DNA from: Escherichia coli | Lineage (GTDB): Bacteria; Pseudomonadota; Gammaproteobacteria; Enterobacterales; Enterobacteriaceae | Length of the DNA: 64,000 nucleotides | Assembly: GCF_013315695.1 (NCBI RefSeq) | Contig: NZ_CP054353.1 | Strand: one strand, 5' to 3' | Shown here: positions 29,045 to 61,833 of the stretch, piece by piece | Layout of the letters: each line of letters opens with the position of its first letter | Numbering within the stretch: position 1 is the first letter of the stretch | Notes under the pieces: generated by a model | The model's database searches: none | What the model was told of the DNA's origin: nothing | What the model saw: only the letters and a program-made list of their open reading frames with translations | Made by a program: the position numbers and the translations under genes

Positions 29045-29079
29045 GTAGACCGGATAAGGCGTTATACGCCGCATCCGGC
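29045..29079. repeat. REP (palindromic unit) element between acs and yjcH
   Basis: gtagaccggataaggcgttatacgccgcatccggc is the reverse complement of the canonical REP consensus GCCGGATGCGGCGT.AACGCCTTATCCGG.CTAC. Confidence 0.7.
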
Positions 29080-29088
29080 AATTGTGGG

Positions 29089-39510: not shown

Positions 39511-39548
39511 TGCCTGATGCGACGCTTGCCGCGTCTTATCAGGCCTAC
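39511..39548. repeat. REP element between gltP and yjcO
   Basis: tgcctgatgcgacgcttgccgcgtcttatcaggcctac matches the REP consensus GCCTGATGCGACGCT.GCGCGTCTTATCAGGCCTAC. Confidence 0.65.
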
Positions 39549-57312: not shown

Positions 57313-57346
57313 TGTTGAGTCTAGAGCAGGCATCGCCCCTCACCCA

Positions 57347-59085: not shown

Positions 59086-60221
59086 CAGAACACCCTTTTA
59101 CCCTGACGCCAGACGTGGTCGATATGAATGTGGTTGCCCTTGCGATGCGCCAGCACCAGGTCGGCGCGTTTGCCCTCGCCAATCACCCCGCGATCCTGAA
59201 GATTAAGCGCCTGCGCCGGATTTTTAGTCACCAGCTTCACCGCCTGCGGCAGCGTAAAGCGGTTGCTCTCGTCATCGGCGACGCGAAATGCCGCATCGAG
59301 CAGGCTGGCGGGGTAGTAGTCGGAAGAGAGGATATCCAGCAGGCCAAGCTGCGCCAGTTCACTGGCCGCCACGTTGCCGGAGTGCGAACCGCCGCGCACG
59401 ATATTCGGCGCGCCCATCAGCACGTTCATGCCATGCTTGCGCGAGGCTTCTGCCGCTTCGAACGTGGTGGGAAATTCGGCGATCACGCTGCCAAGTTGGT
59501 GGGATTCGGCAACGTGGGCGTGCGTGGCGTCATCGTGGCTGGCGAGGGCAATGTGTCGCGCGCGGCACATTGCGGCGATAGTTTCGCGATTAGGCTGTGA
59601 CCAGCGTGCGGCAAGCGCCAGCTGTTCCTCTTCGTACTGCTGCATCTGCGCATCGGTGAGGGAATATTTGCCCTGATAATATTCGCGATACTTCTCGCGA
59701 TTGGCGAACTGGCGCTGGCCTGGCGAGTGGTCCATCAGCGATACCAGCGTCACCGGTTCGCGCTGCACCAGTTTTTCAAACAGCGGCAACGTGGTGTGGT
59801 GCGGCAGTTCGCAGCGCAGGTGCAGGCGGTGCTCGGCGCGGTTGACGCCGCGTTTCTGCGTCTCTTCGATGGCGTTGATCATCTTCTCCAGATTCTCCAG
59901 CCGATCGCCGCCGTCGCGCACGTCGCCAATCGCCACGGCGTCCAGTACGGTGGTTATGCCGCTTGCCACCATCAGCGCGTCGTGGCTACTCATTGCCGAA
60001 TGGGCGGGCCAGTCGACTTTCGGGCGCGGGGTGAAGAATTTATCGAGGTTGTCGGTATGCAGCTCAATCAGCCCCGGCAGCAGCCAGCCACCTTCGCCGT
60101 CCATCGCTTCCGGCTGGCAGCTCTGGCTTTCGGCAAAGGCGCGAATTTCGCCATCCTGTACTTCCAGTGAACCGTGCACCACTTCGTTTTCCAGCACCAG
60201 TTTGACGTTATTGATAATCAT
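59085..60221 (-). CDS. phnM: Phosphonate pathway amidohydrolase-family enzyme PhnM (378 aa)
   Basis: Metal-dependent hydrolase motifs (HTD...); 378 aa. Confidence 0.92.
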
Positions 60222-60898
60222 GAAGAGACTCCCATTGGGTGCAGGCGGTCGGCGACGTCATTGCGTATGGCTTCGTCATGGAAGATACCGACGATGGCCG
60301 CGCCACGGGCTTTGGCTTCGCGAATGAGTTCCACCACCGCGGCGCTGTTTTTGGCGTCCAGCGAGGCGGTGGGTTCATCCAGCAGCAGAATCGGATAGTC
60401 GACGATAAAGCCACGGGCGATGTTGACGCGCTGCTGTTCGCCGCCGGAGAAGGTCGAGGGTGCCAGGTGCCACAGGCGTTCAGGCACGTTCAGGCGCGTC
60501 AGTAATCGGGCGGCTTTAGCGGCGCAGGCTTCACGCGGTACGCCGGTATCGAGCAGCGGCTGCATCACCACTTCCAGTGCCGAAATACGCGGGATGACGC
60601 GCAGAAACTGGCTCACCCAGCCGATGGTGGTTTTGCGGATCTCCACCACTTTGCGGGCTGGCGCGGTGACCAGGTCTACCCATTCCTCACCGTGTTTGAT
60701 CTGGATTTGCCCTTCGTTGGGCAGATAGTTGGCGTACAGCGAGCGCAGCAGGGTTGATTTTCCGCTGCCGGAGTGGCCGTGAAGCACCACGCATTCGCCT
60801 GCGTTGACGGTGAGCGAGGCACGTTGTAAGACGGGCAGGCGCACGCCGTTTTGCTGGTGCAGGATGAAGGTTTTACTGACGTTTTGTACGTTAATCAT
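60218..60898 (-). CDS. phnL: C-P lyase ABC-type ATPase PhnL (226 aa)
   Basis: Walker [10 protein letters not shown], signature FSGGEQQR. Confidence 0.9.
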
Positions 60899-60924
60899 TT
60901 TTCGCCTCGTGGTTCGCATATTGG

Positions 60925-61074
60925 GGATCGGCGCGCGCATTGCCCCTCACCCTAACCCTCTCCCCGAAGGGGCGAGGGGACCGATTGTGCGCGGTGTTGA
61001 ATACGGCACGTTTTTCTCCCTCTCCCTCCGGGAGAGGGCCGGGGTGAGGGGACCAGCGCGCACGGTGTTGCAAC
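60925..61074. repeat. GC-rich palindromic repeat element (two related units) in the phnK-phnL intergenic spacer
   Basis: Unit 1 ccctctcccc-gaa-ggggcgaggggacc...gcgcggtgttg; unit 2 ccctctccctccgggagaggg...ggggtgaggggaccagcgcgcacggtgttg; outer arms gcccctcaccc / gggtgagggg are mutually complementary. Confidence 0.6.
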
Positions 61075-61833
61075 TCAATTCTGCAAAACAGATGACACCA
61101 GCAGCTGGGTATACGGGTGATGCGGGTCGTCGAGCACGCGGTCGGTTAACCCACTCTCCACTACTTGCCCCTGCTTCATCACCAGCAAACGGTCCGCCAG
61201 CAGGCGGGCGACGCCTAAATCGTGGGTGACAATCACCACCGCCAGGTTCAGCTCCACCACCAGGCCGCGCAGCAGGTCGAGCAGGCGCGCCTGCACAGAT
61301 ACATCCAGCCCGCCGGTTGGCTCGTCCATAAATACCAGCTTCGGATGCGTCGCCAGGTTGCGGGCAATCTGCAAACGCTGCTGCATACCGCCGGAAAAGG
61401 TGGTCGGCAGGTCGTCGATCCGGTTGGCGGGAATTTCCACCTCTTCCAGCCACTTCTGCGTGGTGGCACGAATATCGCCGTAATGACGCGCCCCGGTCGC
61501 CATCAGCCGCTCGCCGATATTGCCGCCTGCCGACACCTGGCGGCGCAGGCCGTCGAGTGGATGCTGATGCACCACGCCCCATTCGGTGCGCAGCAGGCGA
61601 CGGCGGTCGGCCTCGCTCATGCCATAGAGGGAACGGTTTTCATAGCGAATCTCCCCCTGCTGCGGCGTCAGGCGCGCGGAGATCGACTTCAGCAGCGTGG
61701 TCTTCCCGGAGCCGGATTCCCCGACGATGCCCAGCACTTCCCCCGGCCATAAATCAAAAGAGACATCGCTAAAGCCTTTGCCCGGCGCGTAAAGGTGGGT
61801 CAGGTTATTGACCGAAAGTAACGGTTGATTCAT
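61075..61833 (-). CDS. phnK: C-P lyase ABC-type ATPase PhnK (252 aa)
   Basis: Walker A GESGSGKTT, signature FSGGMQQR; start overlaps the phnJ stop. Confidence 0.9.
   Translation of the reverse strand: MNQPLLSVNNLTHLYAPGKGFSDVSFDLWPGEVLGIVGESGSGKTTLLKSISARLTPQQGEIRYENRSLYGMSEADRRRLLRTEWGVVHQHPLDGLRRQVSAGGNIGERLMATGARHYGDIRATTQKWLEEVEIPANRIDDLPTTFSGGMQQRLQIARNLATHPKLVFMDEPTGGLDVSVQARLLDLLRGLVVELNLAVVIVTHDLGVARLLADRLLVMKQGQVVESGLTDRVLDDPHHPYTQLLVSSVLQN

Follow-up and report, generated by a model that had tools for sequence, protein, structure and literature searches.

An ordinary BoxC pair and an alternative BIME allele at the phnK-phnL junction of Escherichia coli

Background

Holder et al. 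(2015, PMC4666352) unite in one family their own TMECO motif, the BoxC repeat described in the 1990s and Hoyne and Maher's PIT (potential intrastrand triplex) elements. The family literature comprises Bergler 1992, Bachellier 1996, Hoyne and Maher 2000 and 2002, and Holder et al. 2015 (PMC4666352). The published TMECO pattern is 5'-CCCTCNCCC N3-6 GGGNGAGGG N3 GGGNGAGGG-3', and its second loop defines the type of a unit, TTA for type A and CCG for type B. Where copies are paired in K-12, the two units are without exception inverted and of different type, one A and one B. CD and NMR of consensus oligonucleotides showed that the G-rich strand folds in vitro into an intrastrand purine-motif triplex; in vivo, DMS footprinting failed to reveal it. 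Local sequence variability is raised around TMECO loci, a link to mobile elements was not found, and neither promoter nor terminator activity is ascribed to PIT elements where that paper summarises earlier experiments (all PMC4666352).

REPs, which also occur at the locus described here, stabilise upstream mRNA (PMC3333891); the work cited in the same source includes a study of the stability of the pstS transcript, from another Pho-regulon operon. REPs have a known Y1 transposase partner as well as protein partners (PMC3333891), whereas none are known for BoxC.

Results and discussion

A 176-bp spacer in a tightly packed operon

The DNA analysed here is a 64-kb stretch of the E. coli chromosome (the window), in which the phn operon lies on the minus strand, as established by translation. 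Two genes encoding C-P lyase ATP-binding proteins meet at the junction in question, namely phnK at 61075..61833 (minus strand; stop codon 61075-61077, translation ending in ...SVLQN*) and phnL at 60218..60898 (minus strand; ATG 60896-60898, translation beginning with MINVQNVSK...). Both are annotated by RefSeq in the identical region of strain AR_0077. The phnL start and the phnK stop delimit a spacer of 176 bp at 60899..61074 (minus strand), which is transcribed within the phn mRNA, so that the BoxC pair described below sits between two co-transcribed genes. The size of this spacer had been given correctly by the initial annotation, and so had the crowding of the neighbouring genes: in the ORF table, phnP and phnO are separated by 1 nt, and overlaps of 14 nt (phnO/phnN), 1 nt (phnN/phnM), 4 nt (phnM/phnL) and 4 nt (phnK/phnJ) are found.

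Allele alignment identified a tail at 60899..60916 (minus strand; mRNA CGAACCACGAGGCGAAAA) that is common to both E. coli alleles of the spacer and is also present in REP-bearing relatives. The phnL Shine-Dalgarno sequence GAGG at 60905-60908, 6 nt before the ATG, is intact in the BoxC allele, including its spacing. A 60-aa ORF with a TTG start at 60891-61073 was rejected as a mechanical ORF running through the repeat; the interval is replaced by BIME in ~90% of strains.

The spacer contains an inverted BoxC pair

The spacer is built of two GC-rich triple-block palindromes with complementary outer arms. One internal hairpin, CCCTCTCCCC-GAA-GGGGCGAGGG, is located at 60956-60978 and the other, CCCTCTCCC-TCC-GGGAGAGGG, at 61018-61038. 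The arms form an inverted repeat (I1) of 38 nt each, at 60933-60970 and 61024-61061, with 76% complementarity. According to this repeat and to the MFE folds, the left outer arm (GCGCGC-ATTG-CCCCTCACCC, 60933..60952) pairs with the right outer arm (GGGGTGAGGGG-ACCA-GCGCGC, 61041..61061). Two internal hairpins enclosed by complementary arms had been noticed in the initial annotation, and both components are indeed present.

The published TMECO pattern was matched exactly twice in the 64-kb window, both times inside the phnK-phnL spacer, while 0.00 matches were expected from 100 shuffles. The matches themselves cover 60944-60978 (minus strand) and 61018-61050 (plus strand). The variable-loop form of the pattern was needed for this, and a version with a fixed 4-nt loop gave no match, the loop being 3 nt when the blocks are 9 nt long. 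The unit on the minus strand, at 60943..60978 (CCCTCGCCCCTTCGGGGAGAGGGTTAGGGTGAGGGG), has the second loop TTA and belongs to type A with one mismatch (A-mm); the unit on the plus strand, at 61018..61051 (CCCTCTCCCTCCGGGAGAGGGCCGGGGTGAGGGG), has the second loop CCG and belongs to type B. The two are mutually inverted, which is the A+B pairing that the family leads one to expect, and as far as sequence goes, both fit the classes that were tested for triplex formation. Together with a conserved flank, AACACCGCGCACAATCGGT (mRNA strand), the type A triple block makes up an extended unit of 56 nt at 60943..60998 (minus strand), which equals the length quoted for BoxC in PMC2267715. Megablast matches elsewhere cover exactly query positions 45-100, and the flank recurs in the BoxC copies at ytfQ-ytfR and yjdP-phnP. 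Both units of the pair can be aligned with BoxC/TMECO copies at other loci. Between the units lies a 39-nt linker (60979..61017), homologous by alignment to the linker of the K-12 yjdP-phnP composite; among strains, it is the most variable part of the BoxC composite.

The same two sequences are listed in Table S8 of Holder et al. (2015) for E. coli O104:H4 2011C-3493, at 4,828,952-4,828,985 and 4,829,026-4,829,061, where the type B sequence is TMECO no. 690 and the type A sequence no. 691. According to the RefSeq annotation, the interval holding both entries is the phnK-phnL spacer of that strain. The BoxC pair is therefore real but ordinary, its locus having already been catalogued for O104:H4. 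It agrees with BoxC/PIT/TMECO in consensus, A and B loops, inverted pairing, 56-nt unit and intergenic multicopy occurrence, and differs in nothing essential. As for its arrangement, the third-strand blocks point outside and the linker measures 39 nt, as in the K-12 pair 17+18 and in the yjdP-phnP composite, whereas four K-12 BoxC pairs with linkers of 16-27 nt are arranged differently.

The REP consensus palindrome (of the GCCGGATGCGGCG...CGCCTTATCCGGCCTAC type, in alternating orientation) is absent from the spacer, and outside the flanks there is no similarity to the K-12 REP pair, which bears out the earlier remark that the element does not resemble a classical REP. The same remark placed REPs elsewhere in the window. 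REP-like sequences do occur at 29067-29080 (plus strand) and 39511-39524 (minus strand), represented by CGCCGCATCCGGCA and a variant with 2 mismatches, but their number (2 versus 0.89 expected) is not above chance for so short a pattern.

Copies of the family elsewhere in the chromosome

By BLAST, the 56-nt unit is far from unique: it was detected in 5408 of the 5426 complete E. coli genomes, at 1-28 places in each (median 16), and only 40 of 77,985 places were plasmid-borne. The three copies checked (ytfQ-ytfR, trmJ-iscR and yjdP-phnP) all lie between genes, and the first of them is located inside an operon, downstream of the binding-protein gene ytfQ. BoxC is a dispersed, chromosomal, intergenic repeat family of E. 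coli and its relatives, in keeping with the initial description of the element as a small, GC-rich, dispersed palindromic repeat lying intergenically within a polycistronic operon. In the ytfQ-ytfR spacer of E. coli CFS3313 (L088:328-636), a type A BoxC unit comes immediately after three REPs, which shows that BIME and BoxC can adjoin as well as replace one another.

A remnant of a second BoxC composite lies in the vicinity. K-12 carries a full composite of ~130 nt 3' of phnP (TMECO no. 22 in Table S2 of Holder 2015), homologous to the phnK-phnL composite over its length, linker included. The yjdP-phnP spacer of the window (57313-57346) is 112 bp shorter than that of K-12 and retains just the terminal GCATCGCCCCTCACCC block (57330..57345), which abuts the phnP stop. 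This loss likely represents a deletion between CCCTCNC microhomologies. A reciprocal pattern, with BoxC at phnK/L in one strain and after phnP in the other, was considered and dismissed as a general rule, as O104:H4 carries both.

Two alleles at one site

In K-12 MG1655, the phnK-phnL spacer measures 110 bp and contains two classical REPs, forming a BIME. When the window is aligned with K-12, the flanks are identical (the tail CGAACCACGAGGCGAAAA-ATG on one side and the phnK stop on the other), while the interior is wholly different. Comparison across strains showed that the spacer differs among them: the full-length BoxC spacer is present in 549 (~10%) and the full-length K-12 BIME spacer in 4846 (~90%) of the 5426 complete E. 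coli genomes. A query consisting of the flanks only found the locus in 5392 genomes. Sixty rows spread over its ranking were inspected, 59 of which spanned the junction, and only two sizes were encountered, 551 bp (6 rows) and ~485 bp (53 rows). The site is thus essentially biallelic, at ~10% versus ~90%.

The K-12 allele shares with the BoxC pair its position, flanks, similar size class, GC-rich palindromes, strong predicted mRNA hairpin and dispersed intergenic occurrence. The sequences of the two are nevertheless unrelated, and the triple-block design, with one C-block and two G-blocks, is absent from REPs. Taking all this together, we consider it highly probable that the phnK-phnL spacer represents an inverted BoxC pair at a two-allele site, occupied alternatively by this pair or by a two-REP BIME.

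Among genomes with the BoxC allele, 16 are identical to the window, 5 match at 98.3% (including IAI39 and CE10) and 3 at 94.4%, while most carry the O104:H4 variant (95.4%). Almost all differences between the variants fall in the loop of the B unit and in the linker, and none in the A unit. The coding flanks of the window (60720-61270) are 98.5% identical to those of strain H54, which has the BIME allele (span 485), and 96.2% identical to those of H89-H93, which have the BoxC allele. This suggests that spacer allele and flanks may have been shuffled by recombination. Because both E. coli alleles share the tail CGAACCACGAGGC with REP-bearing RIT691 and Pluralibacter, we infer that the REP-bearing state is probably the older one and that the BoxC composite would have replaced the REPs.

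The junction in relatives

Species-representative genomes were scanned with PhnL as the query, which yielded 80 loci. In most of the sampled Proteobacteria, the gap between phnK and phnL ranges from -4 to about 40 nt. The closest insert-free Enterobacteriaceae have gaps of 7-9 nt of the form TGA-GAGGCSAAC-ATG (in the 9-nt version TGA-GAGGCGAAC-ATG), and these empty sites keep GAGGC. At 14 of 14 Enterobacteriaceae loci, both phnJ-phnK and phnL-phnM overlap, whereas phnK-phnL never do so and are separated by at least 7 nt. REPs or BoxC occupy this gap at 9 of the 14 loci; REPs were found in Kluyvera, Enterobacter asburiae, E. cloacae, Citrobacter werkmanii, Pluralibacter, Cedecea and isolate RIT691. 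Every insertion is placed between the phnK stop and the phnL Shine-Dalgarno sequence. Repeats appear to collect at phnK-phnL because it is the only non-overlapping junction of the three examined.

A homologous BoxC composite with identical boundaries was detected in a record titled Pseudocitrobacter faecalis DSM 27453 (L038:1203-1500). It is 298 nt long and, compared with the window, contains two extra tandem 61-nt units, each composed of a hairpin plus linker. The phnK and phnL genes of this record share 92% nucleotide and about 98% amino-acid identity with those of the window, an unusually high value for a different genus that may reflect horizontal transfer or mislabelling.

Outside Enterobacteriaceae, the alphaproteobacteria Pelagibacterium and two Devosia species (L043:1291-1500, L051:1248-1500 and L071:1304-1500) have phnK-phnL spacers of 197-253 nt with pairs of inverted, triple-block GC-rich palindromes, for example CCCCCACCCC-TAA-CCCCTCCCC-TCAA-GGGGGAGGGG ... 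CCCCTCCCCC-TTGA-GGGGAGGGG-TTA-GGGGTGGGGG. Their architecture and orientation to the mRNA are the same as those of the E. coli BoxC pair, and the L051 spacer holds the E. coli 9-mers CCCTCTCCC and GGGAGAGGG.

The only mildly new point of this survey is that different palindrome families, including the triple-block pairs of Devosiaceae, repeatedly occupy the phnK-phnL junction. Such repeated occupancy could reflect selection for a structured spacer; permissiveness of the site is the simpler explanation.

Predicted folding and a possible role

Folded as the mRNA strand, the BoxC spacer reaches -92 kcal/mol (z = -6.0), and none of 200 shuffles was as stable. With 30-nt flanks, the values are -107 kcal/mol for the BoxC allele and -71.5 kcal/mol (z -5.6) for the K-12 BIME allele. 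Folded as single-stranded DNA, the BoxC spacer reaches -41.8 kcal/mol (z -4.1). In scans of the spacer, neither strand yielded a sigma-70 promoter-like site, and terminator-like sites were absent from the mRNA (minus) strand; the one weak terminator-like site on the plus strand is within chance (1 found versus 1.2 expected). When 60700-61300 was compared with Rfam at permissive E-values, no family reached its threshold, and the only matches, all below it, were to generic hairpins (miRNA).

We propose the following model. The A-mm and B units, with the linker typical of the family between them and the GC-rich arms at their outer ends, are transcribed in the phn mRNA and would form a long hairpin, by prediction very stable, that separates the phnK stop from the phnL ribosome-binding site. 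Palindromic repeats could land or be exchanged at this junction without gene damage. At most, the hairpin would behave as a REP-like stabiliser that stops 3'-to-5' exonucleases, to the advantage of the phnC-K segment over phnL-P. In the DNA itself, the pair would constitute a locally unstable spot, subject to indels, unit expansion and replacement. Several signs of instability were indeed observed, i.e. the allele replacement, variation of the B loop and linker, the two extra 61-nt units in L038 and the 112-bp deletion 3' of phnP. The BoxC pair is likely a tolerated passenger, perhaps serving, by analogy with REPs, as an exonuclease barrier; as to an RNA-level role as such, we lean somewhat against it. 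The effect on mRNA stability raised in the initial annotation would be plausible on the same analogy. In many relatives, phnK and phnL are only 7-9 nt apart, so that no structure is required there. Moreover, the BoxC sequence is conserved rather than covarying, which is more in line with recent spread or with recognition of a specific sequence than with selection for RNA pairing alone.

The distance to the upstream gene might also matter. The outer stem begins 11 nt after the phnK stop in the BoxC allele, and the K-12 REP about 7 nt after it. A REP no more than about 15 nt from a stop codon reportedly lowers expression of the upstream gene via ribosome stalling (Liang, Rudd and Deutscher, Mol Cell 2015), and a comparable stop-proximal effect at phnK, exerted by the outer stem or by the K-12 REP, is conceivable. 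Our literature search returned nothing usable linking phnK/phnL to palindromic repeats or dealing with REP-dependent ribosome stalling.

Alternative explanations

The initial annotation had called the spacer BIME- or MITE-like and had suggested a role in termination or attenuation, and these labels give way to the identification as BoxC. If a REP/BIME-type element or a MITE had transposed into the phn operon, one would picture just such a repeated, palindromic, intergenic sequence with imperfect 38-nt inverted outer arms at a polymorphic site, all the more as a ~130-nt composite recurs 3' of phnP in K-12. However, the spacer lacks the REP consensus and matches the BoxC/PIT/TMECO pattern exactly, while the true BIME, the REP pair, is the other allele, found in K-12. 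MITEs resemble the BoxC pair in their small size, non-coding and repeated nature, inverted outer arms and presence/absence polymorphism, but a target-site duplication could not be demonstrated at this site, a cognate transposase is not known for BoxC and the copies are essentially chromosomal, as the plasmid count given above illustrates. Compared with the empty sites TGA-GAGGCSAAC-ATG, at most an ambiguous G/GAG repeat of 1-3 nt is seen, which does not make a convincing duplication. With the missing link of the family to mobile elements (Holder 2015, PMC4666352) added to this, we regard transposition of a REP or MITE as extremely improbable. A terminator or attenuator lowering expression of phnL-P relative to phnC-K is hardly better placed and appears very improbable, even though a very stable hairpin directly follows the phnK stop and REPs can terminate in some contexts (PMC3333891). 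No U-run follows any stem on the mRNA strand, the 3' sequences being CAAUGCGCGC... and AGAAAAACG..., and because the BoxC hairpin lacks a U-tract, it is not an intrinsic terminator. The scan without a minus-strand terminator and the earlier PIT experiments, as summarised in PMC4666352, point in the same direction. Furthermore, C-P lyase function requires phnL-P, and these downstream genes are intact in strains with the BoxC allele.

A stable hairpin of whatever family might instead be positively selected at phnK-phnL, as an mRNA stabiliser or translational decoupler setting the PhnC-K : PhnL-P ratio. Such selection would account for REPs in K-12 and in at least 7 further loci of Enterobacteriaceae, for the BoxC copies of E. 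coli and L038, for triple-block pairs in three Devosiaceae, and for two E. coli alleles that both fold strongly and leave the phnL Shine-Dalgarno sequence in place; precedents are provided by REP stabilisers within operons and by another BoxC copy that follows ytfQ inside its operon. Several close relatives and most of the Proteobacteria sampled nonetheless have only a short gap, and a sole non-overlapping junction is the simpler account of the occupancy. We therefore judge this selection improbable, and still a little more so its elaborated form, in which the junction would be a selected "structured spacer", filled by unrelated or distantly related palindrome families and acting as an exonuclease barrier or translational decoupler. 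An exclusively DNA-level role, in which a sequence prone to triplex or cruciform formation would give rise to errors of replication or repair and act as a mutational hotspot with no role in RNA, is easier to entertain but on the whole unlikely. It is favoured by the in vitro triplex and the raised variability around TMECO loci (PMC4666352), by the allele replacement, linker and loop indels, 61-nt unit expansion and nearby deletion, and by the single-strand DNA fold. On the other hand, in vivo DMS footprinting did not reveal the triplex (PMC4666352), and a DNA-level role is compatible with RNA effects, as the element is certainly transcribed within the operon. The reading that we prefer remains that of a BoxC pair at a two-allele site.

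Conclusions

For annotation, the value of these results is that an unusual phnK-phnL spacer corresponds to a named repeat, BoxC/PIT/TMECO, and to no new regulatory element. The locus illustrates how, in a tightly overlapping operon, the single non-overlapping junction gathers palindromic repeats, and that a single site can have alleles drawn from two different repeat families. Should the hairpin tune the relative expression of the ABC ATPases PhnK and PhnL, the two alleles would offer natural, isogenic-like variants for testing BoxC function.
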